The position numbers and the translations under genes are program-made. Of a stretch of 64,000 bases of DNA, positions 1 to 58,374 are shown piece by piece. Position 1 is the first letter of the stretch; each line of letters starts with the position of its first letter. Location of the stretch: the NCBI GenBank assembly GCA_964016885.1, contig OZ024741.1, positions 307,396,001 through 307,460,000 of the forward strand. The letters run 5' to 3'. This DNA is from Eledone cirrhosa. Its lineage: Eukaryota. The notes under the pieces were generated by a model, which saw nothing but the letters and a program-made list of their open reading frames with translations, was not told the DNA's origin and did not search any database.

Positions 1-670
1 GTAAAATAAAAAATATATAATATTTATACATAGTATATATTATATTATTTATTATATGTAAATGAACGATTTTATTTATTATACATTGTTCACAATTTGC
101 ATGTAGGCAGGACTCTCTGGAAATAGGGGTGTGGGTATTGTTGTAACTGAGCCCTATTTAAATCCATGCATTTTTAAAGGTGAATGGTGAAGTATTTACA
201 AATAGACCTAAGGATGGCTCTGATCTCCTCCATGATATTTTCCTTACGTTCAGTGCTGGTCCTCGGTTGTTGAGATATACCCTATTCTATACATAGCTCC
301 AAAGAAAGAAATGTGGGGCGCTTAAATCAGGTCTATCTGGGGCTCAGTCAGATCAGTCTTTAAACTGATCTCACGATTTCTAAAGTTATTTTTCAGCCTT
401 TATTCTGTAGGGGTACAATAATATTGACTTTGTTGCTCATAATCACTTAATAAAAACTTATTGCGAAAAGAAAAGTAATTCAGTGCGCATGCATAGAAGA
501 TGATATTTAGACAACATATTTAATATTCAGCATAAACATAAAATAAGGGATATTAAGCGTAATTAATTTATATTTATATTAGAACGGTAAATCACAATTC
601 TTAGAGCTGAAACAGATCTGTTTCTAGCCGAGATAAACAATGCTAATTGCCATTATTAGATAAATAAATA

Positions 671-901
671 TACCCATCTGCCAACTATCTGGCAGATGGG
701 TATACGATGCTGATGATAGCTAACAAGCTTGAAACTAGTACATCGTTCCTGTGTCAGTGTTGAACAAAAAGGTGACGTGGTTGCCTTAACACCGTACGGC
801 ATAAAAATTCAGGCTGTTCAGTTTGTTTACAAACGAACAAGGCGGCGTTATAGTAAGCGTCCGCTAAACTGATACGTGCATATATGTATGTGTACCTGTA
901 T

Positions 902-955
<54 letters not shown>

Positions 956-1386
956 TGCTACTGTACGTCTGTATACATATATGTATGTACGTATACACAC
1001 ATACTTACATTTAAGTAAGTGCCGTACTAAGAGTGAGAAATGAAATTTCGTTTTCATTTTATTTCAACTTATCGTTTTCGGTATGCCTGACCGACTTAGC
1101 TCACTCGATATGCAAATTAGGCTGCTCAGCCGTTAATTTTCATAAGGAAAGTATATACTTTCGAACGTTCAACTATCTGGCAGATAGGTATACGGTGCTG
1201 ATGATAGCTAACAAGCTTGGAACTAGTACATCGTTCCTGTGTCAGTGTTGAACAAAAAGGTGACGTGGTTGCCTTAACACCGTACGGCATAAAAATTCAG
1301 CCTGTTCAGTTTGTTTACAAACGAACAAAGCGGCGTTATAATAAGCGTCCGCTAAACTGATACGTGCATATATGTATGTGTACCTG

Positions 1387-1446
<60 letters not shown>

Positions 1447-1496
1447 TGCTACTGTACGTCTGTATACATATATGTATGTACGTATACACACATACT

Positions 1497-1500
<4 letters not shown>
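671..1500 (+). mobile_element. Hammerhead-bearing tandem element, family E (~488-bp unit, ~1.7 copies; retrozyme/Penelope pLTR-like)
   Basis: 684-1010 is repeated at 1170-1500. The same unit occurs at 19419-20280 and 54603-55235. There is a short fold-back at the left end (671-703). Confidence 0.8.
704..746 (+). ncRNA. Type I hammerhead ribozyme (family E)
   Basis: ACGATG-CTGATGA-t agct aaca agct t-GAAAC-TA-GTA-CATCGT. Perfect stem I, palindromic stem III (ACTAGT), GUA cleavage triplet. Confidence 0.85.
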
Positions 1501-4234: not shown

Positions 4235-4427
4235 TTAATATAGAAATGGCTTCTACAGGACTAGAACTGTTTCATTCGAAGGAAATCATCAGGAAAGCCC
4301 TTTCTGACGATTTCCTTCGAATGAAACAGTTCTATTCCTGTGGAAGCCATTTCTATATTAAATATTATATACTCTACTATGTATTGAGTACCTTACTTAC
4401 TGTGGTTACTCCCGGTTGAACCCGGGA
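4235..4427 (+). mobile_element. Family A palindromic hammerhead element
   Basis: Inverted repeat 4235-4361. Minus-strand hammerhead 4249-4298: GCTTTC-CTGATGA-tttccttcgaat-GAAACAG..CTGTA-GAAGC. Other copies at 9866-10058, 25310-25504, 60478-60652. Confidence 0.8.
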
Positions 4428-17449: not shown

Positions 17450-17594
17450 ATTTGCCACAGGGGCGTAAAAAGCCCACAGAGGGACTAGCTTCGGCCACAG
17501 AGGGACTTCAACCCACGACCTCAGATGACTTTTAGATGATGTCATTAACAGTCTGATGCTCAGCCGACTGAGATATGCGGTCTAACTTAACAGT
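17450..17594 (-). mobile_element. tRNA-headed short element with a Tx1-like 3' tail, in (TATC)n
   Basis: Minus strand: 12-nt leader, tRNA cloverleaf 17582-17492, TTTTT, then GCCCCTGTGGCAAATATATCTAT. (TATC)-type repeats on both sides. Confidence 0.65.
17492..17582 (-). tRNA. tRNA-like sequence (Lys-like body, anticodon reads GTT) with a 19-nt insertion at 37/38; probably a pseudogene or SINE head
   Basis: GACCGCA-TATCTCAGTCGGCTGAGC-A-TCAGA-CTGTTA-[19 nt]-A-TCTGA-GGTC-GTGGGTTGAAGTCCCTC-TGTGGCC-G. T-loop reads GTTG instead of GTTC. Confidence 0.6.
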
Positions 17595-19364: not shown

Positions 19365-19418
<54 letters not shown>

Positions 19419-19422
<4 letters not shown>

Positions 19423-20280
19423 GGAAAAAATGAAACGAAATTTCATTTCCCACTCTTAGTACGGCTGTTACTTAAATATAAGTATGTATACGTACATACA
19501 TATATGTATACAGACGTACAGTAGTATGTATATATACATACATGCACACAAATATATATGTACGTATTGATTCACCGTACATTTATTATAGTGCTCGGTT
19601 TGTTTGTAAACAAACATCCCGTATTAAGCCGTACAGTGTCTAGCAACCAACGTTGCCCTTTTGTTCAACACTGACAAAGGAACGCTGTACTAGTTTCAAG
19701 CTTATTAGCTATCGTCAGCAACGTATACCTTCCTGCCAGATGATTGAACGTCTGAAAATATATACTTTCTTTATGCATATTAACGACTGAGCAGCCTAAT
19801 TTGCATATCGAGTGAGTTAATCGGCCGGACGAACTGAAAACGATAAATGGAAAAAATGAAACGAAATTTCATTCCTCACTTTTAGTACGGCTGTTACTTA
19901 AATATAAGTATATATACGTACATACTCGATATGCAAATATGTAACTCACTCGATATGCAAATTAGGCTGCTCAGCCGTTAATATGCATAAGGAAAGTATA
20001 TACTTTCAGACGTTCAATCATCTGGCAGGAAGGTATACGTTGCTGACGATAGCTAATAAGCTTGAAACTAGTACATCGTTCATTTGTCAGTGTTGAACAA
20101 ATGGTTGCTAGACACTGTACGGCTTAATACGGGATGTTTGTTTACAAACACACCGAGCATTATAATAAATGTTCGGTAAACCCATACGTACATATATATT
20201 TGTGTGCATGTATGTATATATATATACATACTACTGTACGTCTGTATACATATATGTATGTACGTATACATACTTATATA
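19419..20280. mobile_element. Family E elements head-to-head, two hammerheads
   Basis: Minus copy 19419-19925 (hammerhead 19682-19724) and plus copy 19925-20280 (hammerhead 20037-20079), both with a CTGACGA core. Confidence 0.8.
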
Positions 20281-20362
20281 TATATATATACGTACACATG
20301 CACACATATATACTCATACACAAACGCACACACACACACACCACACACACACATACATACAT

Positions 20363-25309: not shown

Positions 25310-25500
25310 GTTATTCCGGGTTGAATCGGAGGTAACCACAGTAAGTAAGGTACTCAATACATTGCAGAGTATAAAAGTTTTAATATAGATGAGATTCTAC
25401 AGGACTAGAACTGTTTCATTCTTTAGAAATCATCAGGAATCTCCTGATGATTTCTAAAGAATGAAACAGTTCTAGTCCTGTAGAATCTCATCTATATTAA

Positions 25501-42475: not shown

Positions 42476-44257
42476 ATGGCCGAAGCTTCTTCACCAAAAT
42501 TCGAAGGAGGAAAGGGGAAGATGAACTTACAGCTTCCCCCTGCCACTGTCACAGTAGCAGAGGTCAAGAAGATAGGTCAGCCAGAGGAAGAATTCTCTCC
42601 ACCTGTTAACCGACAACTTGACGTTACCATGGCAACAACCCAAAGAACCAACAGCAACAACAACAACAATGCGACGGTAGAAAACAACACCAATAACAAT
42701 AACAATAACAACAACAAGACCAATAACGGTGACAACAACAACAATGATAACAACAACACCACCAACGACAACAACAACACAAACAAACAAAATTTCTCCT
42801 TCGCCGAGACGACAAGGAAAACCCTCGACTATCTGCCAGTAGATATAACAAAAGCGAAGGAGCTACTGGCGGATGCGAAAAAATATATAGTGTACGGGGA
42901 AAATGGTTCATTCACAATCCATTCCCCCCCGGAACTAAAAAGCCAGAGACTCCTAAACACGGTCATGTTTAGGACAATCTCGAACAAAAGTAAAAAACCA
43001 GCTCAACCATCACAGAGCGAGATAGAGCTGGTTTTAAAAGACGTCATGAAGGACATCACCTTCATTCAGAAGGATAGACTCTACGGGAGTCTATCCATTC
43101 TCATGAAGGACAGGGACACAGCAGTGAAACTGTCCATCAAACCAATCACATCCACCGCATACACCTTCTACCCTACGTACATGGGTAGAAGAACACAAAA
43201 AATAAAAATCCACACCATCCTGCCGATTATGGACATATGGTGGGTTTTGACAGGTTTTCTGGACCTGGAGGATGACATGCTGGTGTCCATGGGAAAGGCA
43301 TCGGGTGACGCGTTCAGTGGAACGAGCCTCGAACTTGTAGTTCAAATGAGGCCCGAAAGGATCGCCCAGATCCCTGAACGCGTCATACTGGATGATCTAA
43401 CCTTCATCAACATTACCGTTGAGGGTAGACGGCCCTCGTGTTACCTCTGCGGAACCAGAGGTCACCTGAGGGCTGTCTGTCCCCAACTTAATAAGAAAAC
43501 CCCAATCCTGCCTACACCACCAACAACTGCACAACCAACACAATCACCACAACAACCACTACAAAAACAACCACCACAGCTCAAACCAAAACAAAACAAT
43601 GTCCAACCCATCCCCTCCACTCAAAAAACAAAAACAATTTCCAAAACACCCGTACCGCAAACACAACCCGAAAATATACCCCTCCCCTCCAACGCGGAAG
43701 ATGACCCTAGTTCGTCGTCAGACGAGGAGGAGCACTTCCACACAATCAAAAGAAAAAAAAGAAAACACACCTCAGACACACAAATGAAAAAAACCCCTCC
43801 CCAAAACATAACACTGACACCAACACAAAAGAGCTCACAACAGCAAACAAAAAACACCACACAAAAACAAAAACATGCATACACATACATAAATACAAGA
43901 AACAAAAAACTGTTAAACATTGTGTACAACAACAATCTAATAAAAACACAAGGGCCTAACTTCACCCAGGCAGGGGATTTCCCCCACCTCAAAATGATTA
44001 AGGCCCCACAGGACACCTATAAAACTTTAAAAAACAATTTTAAAGAGGACGTGGGTCCCCCCTGCGTCGGGCCCATTAACCGAGTCCTCCTAAAAAACTA
44101 TCCCACCCCCTCCCCAAACACCCTCACAACTCCAAGCTCCCCAACCACACAACACACTGATGCCCCCACACTTCCACAAACCACCACCCCACCCAACAAC
44201 CCATCCCCCACCCTAATGGAAATTGTGCAGCCCGATACCCGGGACACAGAGAGGTAA
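42476..44257 (+). CDS. ORF1 gag-like nucleic-acid-binding protein of the Tx1-like element
   Basis: 593-aa ORF with a CCHC knuckle (CYLCGTRGHLRAVC), an Asn-rich N-terminus and a Pro/Thr/Gln-rich C-terminus, directly upstream of ORF2. Confidence 0.88.
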   Translation: MAEASSPKFEGGKGKMNLQLPPATVTVAEVKKIGQPEEEFSPPVNRQLDVTMATTQRTNSNNNNNATVENNTNNNNNNNNKTNNGDNNNNDNNNTTNDNNNTNKQNFSFAETTRKTLDYLPVDITKAKELLADAKKYIVYGENGSFTIHSPPELKSQRLLNTVMFRTISNKSKKPAQPSQSEIELVLKDVMKDITFIQKDRLYGSLSILMKDRDTAVKLSIKPITSTAYTFYPTYMGRRTQKIKIHTILPIMDIWWVLTGFLDLEDDMLVSMGKASGDAFSGTSLELVVQMRPERIAQIPERVILDDLTFINITVEGRRPSCYLCGTRGHLRAVCPQLNKKTPILPTPPTTAQPTQSPQQPLQKQPPQLKPKQNNVQPIPSTQKTKTISKTPVPQTQPENIPLPSNAEDDPSSSSDEEEHFHTIKRKKRKHTSDTQMKKTPPQNITLTPTQKSSQQQTKNTTQKQKHAYTYINTRNKKLLNIVYNNNLIKTQGPNFTQAGDFPHLKMIKAPQDTYKTLKNNFKEDVGPPCVGPINRVLLKNYPTPSPNTLTTPSSPTTQHTDAPTLPQTTTPPNNPSPTLMEIVQPDTRDTER

Positions 44258-44281
44258 GTGCCTTTTCTCTTCACCACCAAC

Positions 44282-47200
44282 ATGGCTATGCTAAGAGTAG
44301 GCTGTTTAAATGCGCGTGGCCTGGGCTCAACTTGGAAGCAAGCAATGCTTCTAAATGACCTCAGGTCACAACGTATAGATGTGATGGTTATTTGCGAGGC
44401 CCGGATCAGCAACGTGCGACAGCTGGCCCCCACCTTTGATGACTTCGAGATGCACGCATCTCTCTGTCAGCCTGGAGGTGGGGGTGGAGTTGTCGTTCTG
44501 CTGCAAAAACATCTGGGTCTCGCAACACAGATGGTACATTTGGACCCGGAGGGTCGACTAGTGGTTCTGGACCTTGGCAGTGGTAAAGGCGGAGCGTTTA
44601 GGTTGGTAGCCGCCTACGGCCCTTTCGGGTCAATGCGGCCGGACTTCTTCCATCGTCTGGAGACTTTTCTAGGGACGTCCCGCTCCTTGCTATTAGTGGG
44701 GGACTGGAATGGTATCCTAGATGCACGCTGGGACTACGTAGGGGCCTGCCCCGATAGAGAGGGGTGTAATAGCCTCAAAGGGTTAATCGGTCGATTTGAC
44801 CTGGCCGATAGATATCGACTAGATTTTCCGACTGCGCCAACCTGGACTTGGGCAAATCGTAGCGGATCATCTAGGTCGTACCTAGATAGGTTCTTAGTTA
44901 GAATTAAGGATAAGGACTTTTTAAGTTGTCCAAAAATGCGCATTGTTGGCTATTCAGACCACAAATTAGTGACCTGCATGGTCAACCTTGACAGAACTCA
45001 TAGACAGGGCCCCGGTTACTGGAAGCTCAACTTGTCCTTGCCGGCAAGTAGAGCCTACAGGAATCGGATTAGTACGTTAGTTAAGGAACGGTTGACTGGA
45101 GCGATCGTCAACAGCAGGTGGTGGGTATCTCTAAAGAGAGAGATTAGAGTAGTCTCGATAGAATTTAGTAAGGTTCTAGCTGCGGATAGGAATAGGAAGG
45201 AAAGGGAGCTAATAGATAGAGTAGAAGAGGCAATTAGAAGCGGCGACGTGGCCAGAGTGCTAGCGTCGAGAACGGCTTTGAGCCAGTTTTTCGACGCGAA
45301 GCACGAAGGCTGCGTTGTCCGAAGTAAAATACGTGCTCTAGGGAACGAGGGGACCAAAGCTGTTAGCTGGGCCCGCGTGACAGAGGCCAACAGTGGAACT
45401 AAATCCACCATCCGGTCTTTGCGAGACCTGGATGGACGGGCGATTCTTGAGCCTAAGCAGATGTGTGAGGCCTTTCAAAGGCACTTTGCCCGACTGTTCG
45501 GGAGGGGCGGGGAGCCGGTTGGGAACGTGGACTTCGGTCCATACCTCGACGGCCTGCCGCGCCTCTCGGACAGGGAGGCGAAGTCCTGCGAGGAGCCGAT
45601 TTCGGCCGCTGAGATAGAGGACGTGCTGAGCCAATGCGGCAAACGCAAATCCCCGGGTCTCGATGGTCTTCCTTACGAATTATATCTAGCTATGCCGGAC
45701 TTGTTCCCCGATCTCCTCGAGGCGGTCTACTGCAACTGGCAACAGAACGGGAGAATTCCCTGTACTGTGACCAAGGGCGTAGTCACGCTAGTGAGGAAGG
45801 ACGAGAACAAGGGGGACGAAATAAGTAACTTCAGGCCCATAACACTGCTAAATACAGAGTTACAGATTTTGGCCAAGGTGCTAGCAAAGAGGTTGGCGCT
45901 TGTCGTGGGCAACCTGGTGGGAGATGCGCAGACATGCGCTATCCCGTCCAGGTCCATCCATGACAACCTCCACCTCATGCGATACATCATAGAGAGGGTT
46001 GGGAACGAACCCGGCTTTGGTGGGGCTCTGATCAACTTGGATCAATCTAAGGCGTTCGATAGGGTCGACCATGGTTACCTGGATGCGGTGCTAGCGGCGG
46101 CAGGCTTCGGACCCGTTTTCAGGGGCTGGATCACTGCTATGCACAGCAGCCGCATCTGCTCTAGGGTCAAGGTGAACGGCTACCTCTCGGAGCCGTTCAA
46201 AATCGCGCGGTCCATCCGACAAGGGTGCCCTCTCTCCTCCCTTCTGTATGTATTGACTCTCGAGCCACTACTGCGGAAGTTGGAGTTGTTGCAGGGCATC
46301 CCTTTGGAACCGGGATTGCGGAAAGCGGTGTCGGCCTACGCCGATGACGTGACAGTAATGGTGTCGACGGCCTCCGAAATCGAGGCGGTCGGCACCTTAC
46401 TGGAGGAGTACGAAAAGTTCACAGGGGCTAAGCTGAACCGGGACAAGTCGATCGGTTTGCAACTCGGCACGTGGAGGGGCAGACCGATGCCCTCCGATAG
46501 CGTCGTCGGACGCTGGACGGAGGGCCCGGTGAAGTTGCTCGGGGTCTGGTTCGGACCGGACCTCCAGGTGGAGAAAAACTGGGCGGAGGTTACGAACAGA
46601 GTGTTTGCACTGACCCAGAAGTGGGCCAGTTGCAAACTATCCCTGAAAGGTCGGGCGGAGGTGGCGAACACCTACATAGCGTCCGTCATCTACTACCGCC
46701 TGACCGTAGTGCCCTGCCCAAGGGAAACCCTCACCAAGATGGAGCGCGCGCTCTTCCAATTCCTTTGGAAGAGGCGGGCTCCTATGGTGAGGAGATCCAT
46801 CTGCTGTCAACACCCTTCGAAAGGAGGGCTGGGGATGCCGTGGCTAATGATGCGTAAACACGCATTAAGGCTACGGCACCTCTACGTATTCCTCACCGGA
46901 CAACCGGTGTGGGCCTCGTTTGTGAGACGAACCTTTCCCAGACTCGTCTCACTCACCGAGCTGCAATCCTGGGTCAAGCAAAGACCGAGAAAACTGGGCG
47001 CCTGGCACACTGAGTGTGCCCAGGCGCTCACCGCCCTCTGGCAGGCGGATCCGGTTATCAGTGGAGACTCCACCGCAACATTCTATAGAGGGCTGGTACG
47101 CAGCAGGTGCGACGACGCCCTCGGAGAAGCCCTAGACATGGAGGAGGACGAACTGGCCAGCCTTTTCGGTAGGACATTCAGCCCGGGACCTATGGACAAC

Positions 47201-47719
47201 TTCCAGAAGTCCCTGGCCTGGCAGTGCTACCGAGGGGCTTTACCCGTTCGAGAAAGGCTCTACAGACACGGGCGCCCGGGTAGGGACCCCGCCAAAAAGA
47301 TCTGTCCCAGATGCGTGTGCGACGAGGAAACCGTTGCACACGCATTAGTACACTGCTCGGGCGTAGCCGATCTGTGGGGCTATGTCGAACAACTGCTGTC
47401 AAGGGTGGGACCGATCCGGTTGACCACCGAGTCTATTGTAATGATCAAGCCGCCTCCCCCCTTCAAAGATGAAGCAGAGGCGGTGTTTCTGTGCGTAATA
47501 GCCATGGCGAAAGAGGTTGTATGGTGGACGCGTCTGAAAGGACTGAGGTCGGGCACCTTTCTCTCTGGCCAACAACTGGTCCGTTTCTTCCGATATCATT
47601 TCGGAAGAAGGATCAGGATGGAGAGAGAGGTGCTGCACCCCAGCCGTTTCTATGAAAGATGGGTGAAAGTGGCGAGAATGGCCCGTGTGAATGGGCCTTC
47701 ACTCTACATCAGACTATAG
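44282..47719 (+). CDS. ORF2: APE endonuclease + reverse transcriptase + C-terminal Zn finger
   Basis: APE motifs LNARGL, GDWN, YLDR, SDH. RT motifs PGLDG, FRPITLLN, DQSKAFDRVDH, IRQGCPLS, YADD. C-terminal CPRC..ETVAHALVHC. First ATG at 44282; the ORF track starts at the GTG at 44258. Confidence 0.95.
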   Translation: MAMLRVGCLNARGLGSTWKQAMLLNDLRSQRIDVMVICEARISNVRQLAPTFDDFEMHASLCQPGGGGGVVVLLQKHLGLATQMVHLDPEGRLVVLDLGSGKGGAFRLVAAYGPFGSMRPDFFHRLETFLGTSRSLLLVGDWNGILDARWDYVGACPDREGCNSLKGLIGRFDLADRYRLDFPTAPTWTWANRSGSSRSYLDRFLVRIKDKDFLSCPKMRIVGYSDHKLVTCMVNLDRTHRQGPGYWKLNLSLPASRAYRNRISTLVKERLTGAIVNSRWWVSLKREIRVVSIEFSKVLAADRNRKERELIDRVEEAIRSGDVARVLASRTALSQFFDAKHEGCVVRSKIRALGNEGTKAVSWARVTEANSGTKSTIRSLRDLDGRAILEPKQMCEAFQRHFARLFGRGGEPVGNVDFGPYLDGLPRLSDREAKSCEEPISAAEIEDVLSQCGKRKSPGLDGLPYELYLAMPDLFPDLLEAVYCNWQQNGRIPCTVTKGVVTLVRKDENKGDEISNFRPITLLNTELQILAKVLAKRLALVVGNLVGDAQTCAIPSRSIHDNLHLMRYIIERVGNEPGFGGALINLDQSKAFDRVDHGYLDAVLAAAGFGPVFRGWITAMHSSRICSRVKVNGYLSEPFKIARSIRQGCPLSSLLYVLTLEPLLRKLELLQGIPLEPGLRKAVSAYADDVTVMVSTASEIEAVGTLLEEYEKFTGAKLNRDKSIGLQLGTWRGRPMPSDSVVGRWTEGPVKLLGVWFGPDLQVEKNWAEVTNRVFALTQKWASCKLSLKGRAEVANTYIASVIYYRLTVVPCPRETLTKMERALFQFLWKRRAPMVRRSICCQHPSKGGLGMPWLMMRKHALRLRHLYVFLTGQPVWASFVRRTFPRLVSLTELQSWVKQRPRKLGAWHTECAQALTALWQADPVISGDSTATFYRGLVRSRCDDALGEALDMEEDELASLFGRTFSPGPMDNFQKSLAWQCYRGALPVRERLYRHGRPGRDPAKKICPRCVCDEETVAHALVHCSGVADLWGYVEQLLSRVGPIRLTTESIVMIKPPPPFKDEAEAVFLCVIAMAKEVVWWTRLKGLRSGTFLSGQQLVRFFRYHFGRRIRMEREVLHPSRFYERWVKVARMARVNGPSLYIRL

Positions 47720-48039: not shown

Positions 48040-50706
48040 TAAGAGGCACTTAGGAGTGGCAACGTAGCCAGCGTGCTAGCGACGAGAACGGCCTTGGACC
48101 AGTTCTTCGACGCAAAGCACGAAGGCTGCGTTGTCAGAAGCAAAATACGTGCTCTGGGAAACGAGGGAGCCAAAGCTGTTAGCTGGGCCCGCGTGACGGA
48201 GGCGAAAAGTGGCAACAAGTCCACGATTCGGTCTTTGAAGGACCAAGACGGACGCGTGATACATTAGCCGAAGCAAATGTGCGCGGCCTTTCAGCGGCAC
48301 TTTGCTCAACTGTTCGGGCAGGGCGGCGCGCCGAGAGGGGCTATGGGTTCGGTTCATACCTCGACGGCCTACCGCGACTCTCGGACAGCGAGGCGAAGTT
48401 CTGCGAAAGGCCGATTTCGGCCGCTGAGATAGGAAACGCGCTGAGCCAATGCGGCAAACGCAAATCTCCAGGTCTCGACGGTCTACCCTACGAATTTTAA
48501 GTAGCAATGCCGGACTTGTTCTCCGGTCTCCTGGAAGCGATCTACTGCAACTGGCAGCAGAACGGGAGAATTCCCAGTTCTGTGACCAAGGGCGTAATCA
48601 CGTTAGTCAGGAAGGACGAGAACAAGGGGGATGACATAGGCAACTTCCGGCCCATAACTCTGCTCAACACAGAGTTACAGATTTTGGCCAAGGTGTTGGC
48701 AAAGAGGCTGGCGCTTGTCGTCGAAAACATGGTGGGAGAAGCGCAGACATGCGCAATCCCGACCAGGTCCATACACGACATCCTCCACCTCATGCGATAC
48801 ATCATAGAGAGGGTAGGGTGTAAACCCGGCTTCGGTGGGGCCCTGATCAACTTGGATCAGTCTAAGGCTTTCGATAGGGTTGATCATCGTTACCTGGATG
48901 CGGTGCTCGAGGCGGCAGGCTTCGGTCCCGTGTTCAGGGGCTGTATTGCTGCAATGCACAGCAGCAACATCTGCTCAAGGGTCAAGGTGAACGGCTACCT
49001 CTCGGAGCCGTTCCATATCACGCGATCCATCCGACAGGGATGCCCTCTCTCCTCCCTTCTGTACGTACTGATTCTCGAGCCACTACTGCGGAAGTTGGAG
49101 TTATTGCAGGGCATCCCTTTGGAACCGGGACTGCGAAAAGCGGCGTCGGCCTACGCCGACGACGTAACAGTAATGGTGTCGAGCACCTCGCAAATCGGGG
49201 GGATCGGCACCTTATTGGAGGAATACGAAAGATTCACAGGAGCGAAGCTGAACCGGGACAAATCCGTCGATTTGCAACTCGGAACGTGGAGAGGCAAACC
49301 GATGCCTTCCGATGACGTTGTCGGACGCTGGACGGAAGGACCGGTAAAGCTGCTCGGGCTCTGGTTTGGTTCGGACCTCCAGGTGGACAAGAACTGTAAC
49401 GAGGTGACGGCCAAGGTGGCGAACAGTTTTATAGCATCCGACATCTACTACCGCTTGACCGTCGTGCCTTGTTTAGCCAAAACGCTCACCAAAATGGAGT
49501 GCACGCTCTTCCAATTCCTTTGGAAGAAAGGGCTCCTTTGGTGAGAAGATCCATCTGATGCCAACACCCTTCAAACGGAGGGCTGAGGATGCCGTGGCTG
49601 ACGATGCGCAAACACGCGCTCAGGCTGCGGCACCTCCACGTATTCCTCACCAGACAACCGGTGTGGGCCCCGTTCGTGAGGCGAGCCTTCCCACGACTCG
49701 TCTCACTGACCGATCTGCAGTCCTGGGTCAAGAAAAGACCGAGGAAAATGGGCGACTGGCACATCGAATGTGCTCAGGCGCTCACAGTCCTCTGGCAAAC
49801 AGACCCGGCGATCAGTGGAGACTCCACTTCGACATTCTATAGAGGGTTGGTCTGCAGCAAGTGCGACGACGCGCTCGGAGAAACTCTAGGCGTAGAGGAG
49901 GACGAACTGGTCAGTCTGTTCGGTAGGACCTTCCGCCCGGGACCAATGGACAACTTCCAAAAGTCCCTGGCCTGGCAGTGCTACCGAGGAGCTCTACCAG
50001 TTCGAGACAAGCTCTACAGACACGGGCGTCCGGGTAGGGACCCTTCGAAAAAGATCTGTCCGAGATACGTGCGCGACGAGGAAACCGTCTCACACGGATT
50101 TCTACACTGCCCGGGCGTTACCGACCTGTGGGGCTATGTAGAACGACTATTGTCGCGGGTGGGACCAATCCAGTTGACCACCGAGTCCATTTTCATGATC
50201 AAACTGCCACCCTCCTTCAAAAACGAGTGAGAGGCGGTTTTCCTATGTGTTATGGCTATGGTGAAAGAGGTTATATGGTGGACGAGGTTAAAAGGGCAGA
50301 GGTCAGACACCTTTCTCTCCGGCAAGCAACTGATTCGTTTTTTCAAATAGCATTTTGGAAGAAGAATCAGGATGGAGAGAGAGGTGCTGTACCCCAGCAA
50401 ATTTTATAAAAGGTGGGTGAATGTGGCAAAGATGGCCCGAGTGGTTGGGCCTTCTCTCTATATAAGCCTGTAGGTTGAGGAAAAAAAGGAAGAGAGGATG
50501 GGAGTACTCACCCTTGGTGCTCCTGGAGATGAGGGTTGTACATTTTTTTGGGGGGTGTACAACCCCTGTGTAACACCTCCCCCCTATTGGGGATTTCAAT
50601 TGTTATTTGTTATTGTATTAATAGTTTTATTTTCATATACCTGTATGTAACCTCCCGCATTTGTATTTGTCCCCTTCTTTCGTGCCCTTGTGGCTAATAA
50701 AGAAAT
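48040..50706 (+). pseudogene. 5'-truncated, decayed second Tx1-like copy (ORF2 RT/ZnF region and 3' UTR)
   Basis: Colinear with 45224-47982. Contains stops, frameshifts and an internal deletion. ORF fragments 48507-49544 and 49589-50230 match ORF2. Flanked by (TATC)n on both sides. Confidence 0.92.
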
Positions 50707-54602: not shown

Positions 54603-55004
54603 ACATTTAAGTAAGTGCCGTACTAAGAGTGAGAAATGAAATTTCGTTTTCATTTTATTTCAACTTATCGTTTTCGGTATGCCTGACCGACTTAGCTCAC
54701 TCGATATGCAAATTAGGCTGCTCAGCCGTTAATTTTCATAAGGAAAGTATATACTTTCGAACGTTCAACTATCTGGCAGATGGGTATACGGTGCTGATGA
54801 TAGCTAACAAGCTTGAAACTAGTACATCGTTCCTGTGTCAGTGTTGAACAAAAAGGTGACGTGGTTGCCTTAACACCGTACGGCATAAAAATTCAGGCTG
54901 TTCAGTTTGTTTACAAACGAACAAAGCAGCGTTATAATAAGCGTCCGCTAAACTGATACGTGCATATATGTATGTGTACCTGTATGTATATGTATGTATA
55001 TCTG

Positions 55005-55095
<91 letters not shown>

Positions 55096-55230
55096 GTGTG
55101 TATATGTGTATATGTGCATGCTACTGTACGTCTGTATACATATATCTATGCACGTATACACACATACTTACATTTAAGCAAGTGCCGTACTAAGAGTGAG
55201 AAATGAAATTTCGTTTTCATTTTATTTCAA

Positions 55231-55235
<5 letters not shown>
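54603..55235 (+). mobile_element. Family E monomer with ~65-bp terminal redundancy and intact hammerhead (54788-54830)
   Basis: 54603-54668 is repeated at 55170-55235, followed by (TA)n. Near-identical to 684-1500. Confidence 0.85.
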
Positions 55236-55277
<42 letters not shown>

Positions 55278-58299: not shown

Positions 58300-58374
58300 G
58301 CTGTCTGATGAGATCATGACACTGGTAGCGTGAAATCACGCGGCCACTGTCGTCCCTGAAATATGTATCACAGC
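58300..58374 (+). ncRNA. Type I hammerhead with a long stem II
   Basis: GCTGT-CTGATGA-..atgacactgg..gcgtg aaat cacgc..ccactgtcgt..-GAAA-TATGTA-TC-ACAGC, followed by AATAAA and (CT)n(TA)n. Confidence 0.72.

Follow-up and report, generated by a model that had tools for sequence, protein, structure and literature searches.

The window, by which we mean the whole 64,000-nucleotide stretch of Eledone cirrhosa DNA analysed here, carries near its left end a tandem array whose two hammerhead cores, at 710 and 1198, stand 488 bp apart, as the initial annotation had claimed. The array starts at 682 and lies on the plus strand, behind a 14-bp inverted piece (669–682, minus strand) that is the reverse complement of 691–704. 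Its first unit is 5'-truncated (682–891, or u218–427 in the unit coordinates used below, where u1–427 denotes window positions 953–1379) and contains a type I hammerhead with an intact core (704–746, CUGAUGA at 710), a stem II closed by U·U, GAAA, a palindromic ACUAGU and a predicted cut after 740. An internal (TA)n tract follows (892–952, pure run 906–951), predicted to form the tip of a long RNA hairpin, and then the full non-TA body that serves as our reference (953–1379). This body comprises an AC-rich stem-loop (995–1022) whose loop contains the first of two end sites, S1 (~1010, ~u58); a 'tail' with a hairpin between S1 and S2 (1011–1072); and S2 itself (1070–1072, u118–120), both sites being read through in this unit. 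Downstream lie TATGCAAATTAG (1109–1120), which is the upstream element of host U6, U6atac and MRP promoters, a TATA box 41 bp past it and also within an RNA hairpin (1151–1158), and a second hammerhead (1192–1234, core at 1198, predicted cut after u276 in the reference) in which GAAA is changed to GGAA at 1220, so that this copy is predicted to be impaired and the array holds only one intact core. A second internal tract (1380–1443, pure run 1391–1442) leads into a last partial unit (1444–1501), which ends at S1, after CATACTTACAT and about 60 nt before S2, in flanking (TA)n (1501–1580).

The hammerhead core motif occurs five times in the window (at 727, 1215, 19701 on the minus strand, 20060 and 54811) and not once in 100 shuffles. 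Two of these copies form an inverted insertion, previously placed near 19419–20280 and here mapped to 19417–20282, a member of an older subfamily that shares about 80% identity with the others. Its left arm (19417–19925, minus strand; hammerhead 19688–19718, promoter element 19796–19807) has S2 as its outer end, and its right arm (19942–20282, plus strand; hammerhead 20043–20073, promoter element 19954–19965) has S1 (~20280). The fifth copy is a monomer with a tail at both ends (54603–55235, plus strand; hammerhead 54794–54824, promoter element 54705–54716, internal tract 54976–55115), whose 3' end is at S2 and runs into (TA)n at 55233–55274. Its expected redundancy of about 65 bp proved to be a 66-bp direct repeat, 98.5% alike at either end, and the variable-length (TA)n tract said to be part of the unit is present in it. 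The fixed 3' end of the initial annotation stands for the copies that end at S2 (55235 and 19417), but a second end exists at S1 (1501 and ~20280); that second fixed end, the strict pairing of S1 with S2 and the U6-type promoter element had all been missed.

The window also holds other repeats. A second hammerhead family, in which U·U likewise closes stem II and stem III is longer, forms short inverted pairs at 4240–4330 and 25380–25490 and recurs in many of the loci fetched, and at 58305 (plus strand) and 25734 (minus strand) there are further motifs resembling a hammerhead, whose stem III reads TATGTA or TATATA. At 42476–47719, a 593-aa ORF that gave no Pfam match is followed by an open 1153-aa frame with endonuclease, reverse transcriptase (RT) and zinc-finger regions, a LINE-type retrotransposon with a broken relative at 48076–50230. 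A tRNA-like stretch with a 20-nt insertion (17492–17582, minus strand) is probably a SINE head.

A search of the whole genome (1,796 contigs, 3.0 Gb) with 23 nt of the core gave 17,196 exact copies, against none for the reversed control. Among the 40 of 2,006 candidates that were scored, best DNA matches are mostly 98–100% identical, so that one subfamily is young; of its places, 409 stop on (TA)n at S2 and 522 continue past that site. The head-to-tail period is 426–587 bp (54 intervals), and units run head to tail from S2 back into promoter and ribozyme without an ORF up to 6–7 times, each carrying a type I hammerhead core (CUGANGA/GAAA/GUA, stems I–III). The unit is thus a real, genome-wide, non-coding repeat of retrozyme type, and the earlier description of it as retrozyme-like and non-coding is supported by the hammerhead core, by the head-to-tail repeats and by the lack of any ORF of at least 120 aa at the unit places. 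A distantly related sister family (E about 1e-17; L191:8253–8633, minus strand, and L250:3480–4630) shares the layout of promoter element, TATA box, hammerhead and tail hairpin and lacks the long (TA)n. One sister-family copy, selected by pattern, stops at the cut site of its ribozyme, where (TA)n follows. The unit or its relatives are also present in four contig runs from three organisms; the two other organisms (runs X5 and X6) have relatives of it, in one case with an inverted junction.

To place the ends of the element, we mapped 107 clusters from 94 sources, namely 65 loci from the first 100 exact matches (contig C1), 28 best-match loci and the window. The 169 outer 3' ends fall at S1 (70), at S2 (76) or elsewhere (23), and none lies within 10 nt of the ribozyme cut, in agreement with the earlier observation that copies do not end at the GUA cleavage site. 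A (TA)n tract adjoins 63 of the 70 S1 ends and 66 of the 76 S2 ends, compared with 8 of 35 ordinary 5' ends, and these 129 of 146 ends bear out the proposal that (TA)n is the target. Both ends could be classified in 47 of the 62 two-armed clusters, and in these inverted insertions S1 is paired with S2 in 44 (p=1e-10), the rest being three S1+S1 pairs and no S2+S2 pair; in the set chosen by position the proportion is 28 of 29. By eye, one of the three S1+S1 cases is a low-complexity artefact and another is two merged insertions, and in the remaining 15 two-armed clusters one end is lost or broken at a tract. Two-armed clusters make up 41 of the 73 chosen by position, and the longer arm ends at S2 in 26 cases and at S1 in 18, with no clear rule. 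Only one of 102 clusters tried gave a usable empty-site comparison bearing on whether the flanking (TA)n precedes insertion (L142), where the site is AT-rich and no (TA)n has been added.

The 5' junctions within the body (n=141) are spread evenly over the unit (KS p=0.18) and do not pile up at the cut (1 of 141 against 3.7 expected) or at the predicted start (10 against 6.5 expected, p=0.12). This uniformity, with a single junction at the cut, indicates that the templates run through both the cut and the promoter. Random 5' truncation together with an inverted 5' arm is as found in a non-autonomous Penelope-like element (PLE).

The same genome contains 10,597 candidates for the GIY-YIG endonuclease, of which 150 were scored, and the loci fetched have long RT and GIY-YIG frames in which a CxxxxCxxC motif precedes the nuclease. 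We call these coding families Neptune-type from this motif, which PMC8557442 gives, in the part available, for Neptune and Nematis, rather than from a tree. They end in (TA)n at two sites about 20–70 nt apart, carry microsatellites in their own 3' regions, and in 9 of 11 divergent pairs, scored by eye and without L099, where the arms converge, or the L081 family, which the script could not score, their two arms end at different sites. Since the unit has this pairing of end sites and this (TA)n target in common with them, their enzyme most likely copies it in trans. The enzyme of the Anolis element Poseidon PAc (Frangieh et al. 2024, PMC11167929) cuts AT-rich DNA and extends both strands in vitro, begins synthesis at two sites within the RNA, which delimit the genomic tail and of which one lies in an AC-rich stem-loop downstream of the hammerhead, and does so without need of ribozyme cleavage. 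The unit shares these two start sites, their placement, the AT-rich target and the extension on both strands, whereas PAc is coding and the unit non-coding, the PAc tail is 30–40 nt and that of the unit about 60 nt, and the PAc enzyme showed no strand difference in start site while the arms of the unit differ in 44 of 47 insertions. Because coding PLEs and this enzyme use two sites bounding a tail, and S1 likewise lies in an AC-rich loop, the 66-bp redundancy is a Penelope-type tail between S1 and S2.

No copy of the unit is joined to an RT–endonuclease ORF in any of the 94 sources, as the initial annotation would have it; PLE protein matches occur in two of them, neither joined to the unit. 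Comparison of the unit by blastn and nhmmer with coding-PLE loci, among about 100 loci fetched, gave no DNA similarity, and a search for a partner by protein returned one family only. The coding families L081, L099 and L083 carry a U3–A8 variant of the hammerhead core, and CCAAT and TATA motifs lie upstream in L081 and L084. A pattern for a variant core gave counts near the control level (92 against 63), and 15 follow-up stretches drawn from it yielded no PLE protein matches.

Of 102 full units, 90 have an intact hammerhead core, although Rfam returns no hammerhead match at its gathering threshold. The G10.1–C11.1 pair described as usual (PMC4209133, available part) is replaced by U·U in all 16 family rows and is G–C in the two sister-family rows, whose stems differ in sequence and keep the same register. 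Stem III is the palindromic ACUAGU in a type I hammerhead, a form that, as reported in the same source, requires dimerisation and shows weak cleavage in vitro. For Xenopus retrozymes, the available text of a recent preprint (bioRxiv 10.64898/2026.07.22.740005) reports that eight of nine dimers gave no cleavage in vitro. An alignment of 18 rows has 92.5% of its cells paired, and in 11 of 29 pairs both partners change; this covariation signal comes mostly from the two sister rows, which represent a single event. Monomers taken from cut to cut are predicted to be highly self-paired, with folding z-scores against shuffles of −9.4, −9.2, −6.7 and −10.4, and of −5.6 for a body without the long tract.

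The internal (TA)n tract differs between subfamilies. In young units the median length of its longest pure run is 36 bp, and 124 of 161 reach 20 bp; in old units the median is 10 bp, and none of 54 does. The long tract is therefore a recent gain. Within arrays, long pure runs vary and short ones are constant, as slippage predicts, and tract lengths differ on average by 23 bp within and 35 bp between insertions (permutation p=0.0002, 62 groups), a similarity that is in part the difference between subfamilies. Internal tracts also receive other insertions, in L002, L008 and L009 among 217 tracts and also in L193. The proposal that the element spreads new (TA)n tracts holds in that the young subfamily carries long ones, but was overstated: by rough extrapolation the element supplies about 0.5% of such tracts in the genome, and the window alone has 64 tracts of at least ten TA units.

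Arrays bear on the form of the template. In L150, three private substitutions are common to all six units, with a divergence of 0.36% within the array and 1.83% to the nearest other copy, and in L136 five tracts are identical, that of the inverted arm included. Insertion-specific haplotypes extend over all units and both arms in L150 and L136 and over all units in L151, L146 and L101. Conversely, the variants of L193 follow a period-3 pattern (8 of 14 variable columns), a higher-order repeat, and those of L156 a mixed one, so that not every array can derive from a one-unit template. Arrays of at least three units contain 57 singleton and 18 shared variants, and the nearest neighbour of a unit (n=64) lies in the same insertion for 30, is tied for 8 and lies elsewhere for 26, a count biased against the same insertion because many units come from best-match loci. 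Two head-to-tail cores occur in only 13 of the 73 position-chosen clusters. Rolling-circle copying of one- to three-unit circles fits these data, and so does linear read-through combined with DNA duplication.

Each unit carries TATGCAAATTAG at u157–168 and GTATATA at u199. Of the 377 runs of at least four T, 373 fall within u80–199, in units that are not independent of one another, and these runs are evidently read through. In host U6, U6atac and MRP loci the element lies at −76 to −78 and a TATA box at −31. It is present in three of the six U6 loci viewed, displaced by an insertion in one and absent from two, and it occurs in the best of six U6atac loci and at the single MRP locus, which is to say in all five Pol III genes with intact upstream regions; upstream of U1 (0 of 8) and U2 (0 of 2) it is absent. 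A matrix built from the five positive host sites scores the unit at 18.1 bits, against a best of 17.2 in 812,694 background positions, and conservation of the element reaches 98% between subfamilies that are 68% alike over their bodies. A U6-type promoter in each unit is accordingly suggested by these matches, and we advance it as a possibility rather short of an even chance. Retroposition does not normally carry along an upstream promoter of U6 type, so its retention here would be unusual. Host U6, U2 and U1 genes lie in tandem clusters (G000 C19:31.78–31.84 Mb, C3:307.35–307.45 Mb and C2:180.97–181.0 Mb), and at L214:1480–1620 a U6-like copy has as its flanks a coding-family tail and sequence from the second hammerhead family, an arrangement that suggests capture of U6 RNA.

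We consider it probable that the unit is a non-autonomous element copied in trans by a Neptune-type RT with a GIY-YIG endonuclease. The observations behind this reading are the copy number, the two ends, the inverted pairing, the (TA)n flanks, the absence of an attached ORF, the conserved RNA folds and the U6-type element; against it stand the lack of DNA similarity to the coding families fetched, the U·U in the hammerhead, the short promoter spacing, the T6–7 runs read through in old units, the mixed arrays, the 30 of 64 units whose nearest neighbour shares their insertion, the small share of clusters with two head-to-tail cores and the Xenopus dimers that mostly gave no cleavage. A tandem locus would be transcribed from the promoter within the unit, which may, on a tentative view, be of U6 type, and transcription would read into the next unit. 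The hammerheads might then pair as dimers and cut out unit-length RNA that is ligated to a circle, a step to which we give an even chance. Very probably, the borrowed enzyme would then make a cut in each strand of a (TA)n tract and prime cDNA synthesis at internal sites of the RNA, using S1 for one strand and S2 for the other. Each cDNA would proceed back through promoter and ribozyme, over up to several units, until a random stop, and the joining of the two cDNAs would give the inverted and tandem insertions, with the internal (UA)n copied passively and altered in length by slippage. A more elaborate version is speculative and, to us, rather unlikely: a SINE-like parasite that has captured the external U6-type promoter of the host and retains it when retrotransposed, since a hammerhead-cut circle allows a Penelope-type enzyme dimer to copy the entire unit while priming the two target strands at two different fixed sites in one RNA, the circle also bringing the (TA)n landing pad of the enzyme itself.

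The origin of the unit could be read otherwise. It might be the pseudo-LTR (pLTR) of an unsampled coding PLE family, most copies being 5'-truncated insertions, and all of its junction features are indeed those of coding PLEs, only 150 of the 10,597 GIY-YIG candidates were scored, and Xenopus retrozymes resemble pLTRs in the available text of the preprint cited above. Yet ORF-free units run head to tail up to six or seven times, 522 young copies read through S2, none of the 94 sources has a joined ORF, and the coding pLTRs fetched show CCAAT plus TATA rather than the U6-type element, which makes this reading improbable. Spread without RNA, as a DNA minisatellite or a rolling-circle DNA element, would account for the higher-order repeat in L193, but it is contradicted by the pairing of S1 with S2 ends and sits poorly with thousands of dispersed short insertions that have fixed 3' ends, random 5' ends and inverted arms and that match the retroelements of the same genome; we regard it as very improbable indeed.

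Two further alternatives concern steps within the preferred reading of trans-copying by a Neptune-type enzyme. With the same enzyme and the same ends, the template could be uncleaved, linear read-through RNA from tandem loci, no circle being needed, the hammerhead being weak or otherwise used and long arrays growing by DNA duplication. The in vitro insertion that has no need of ribozyme cleavage (PMC11167929), the U·U that closes stem II, the patterns of L193 and L156 and the absence of 3' ends at the cut all favour such a template, whereas arrays of three to six units with their own fixed private variants, as in L150, call for a one-unit bottleneck and then multimerisation, and the core intact in 90 of 102 units and the covariation of the hammerhead stems with the sister family also speak against it. 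We treat the linear template as a serious possibility that falls somewhat below an even chance, and a circular RNA as a plausible prediction that is evenly balanced. As to the promoter, TATGCAAATTAG could be an ordinary octamer site of a Pol II TATA promoter, or be kept for RNA structure, rather than serve Pol III. The spacing between element and TATA is 41 bp in the unit and 40 bp in the sister family against 45–47 bp in host Pol III genes (4–6 bp shorter in the unit), both motifs fall within predicted hairpins, and the long stem predicted around the ribozyme begins upstream of the predicted start. Moreover, a T6–7 run directly before S2 in 5 of 11 old units was nevertheless copied through, and the promoter of newt satellite 2, as cited in the available part of PMC2220036, is of snRNA type and yet Pol II. 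Set against these points, the occurrence of the element in all five intact Pol III genes and at neither U1 nor U2, its score above every background position and its conservation between diverged subfamilies leave the non-Pol III alternative, in our judgement, with about equal chances of being right or wrong.

Much of this biology has precedents: retrozymes and their interpretation as non-autonomous PLEs are already published, and so are tails and (TA)n targets, at least in the parts of the sources available. The animal non-LTR retrozymes (Cervera and de la Pena 2020, PMC7229834), as their accessible text describes them, share with the unit non-coding tandem repeats with one type I hammerhead each, low GC, a highly self-paired monomer and coexistence with PLEs. 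They measure about 170–450 bp, or 150–450 bp as quoted in that paper, against 426–587 bp here, and the unit differs from what is described there in its internal (TA)n, U·U-closed stem II, two paired ends and (TA)n target, its circles being only predicted. The preprint (bioRxiv 10.64898/2026.07.22.740005), within whose range of 51–972 bp our period falls, reaches in its available text the same overall conclusion, that retrozymes are non-autonomous PLEs; its basis is co-occurrence and pLTR similarity in vertebrates, whereas ours is junctions, with no pLTR similarity found. Non-autonomous Chlamys elements such as MRC1, and insertions of Naiad and Neptune (Craig et al. 2021, PMC8557442), resemble the unit in the portion available: their copies run head to tail, the 5' arm is inverted, often only one end bears a tail, and the targets are microsatellites. 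Naiad and Chlamys are described there as lacking canonical hammerheads, of which the unit has one, and their non-autonomous forms resemble the 3' end of the partner, while the unit has no such match so far. Hammerhead tandem repeats with a promoter of their own are also known from newt satellite 2 (snRNA-type, Pol II) and the schistosome satellite (Pol III), both as cited in the accessible part of PMC2220036; unlike in what is given there, the motif of the unit is a host U6-class element with a TATA box, upstream of the predicted start. In the literature covered, which included few subscription papers and no supplements, neither a strict pairing of start sites nor a U6-class element has been described in a retrozyme.

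The preprint, in the text available, leaves to future work the mechanism by which animal retrozymes return to DNA. The junctions described here link one retrozyme to Penelope-type priming and yield a sharp rule, under which S1 serves as the start on one target strand and S2 on the other. An RNA of 490 nt with mapped start sites, together with long open partner frames in the same genome, makes a small substrate for reconstitution.
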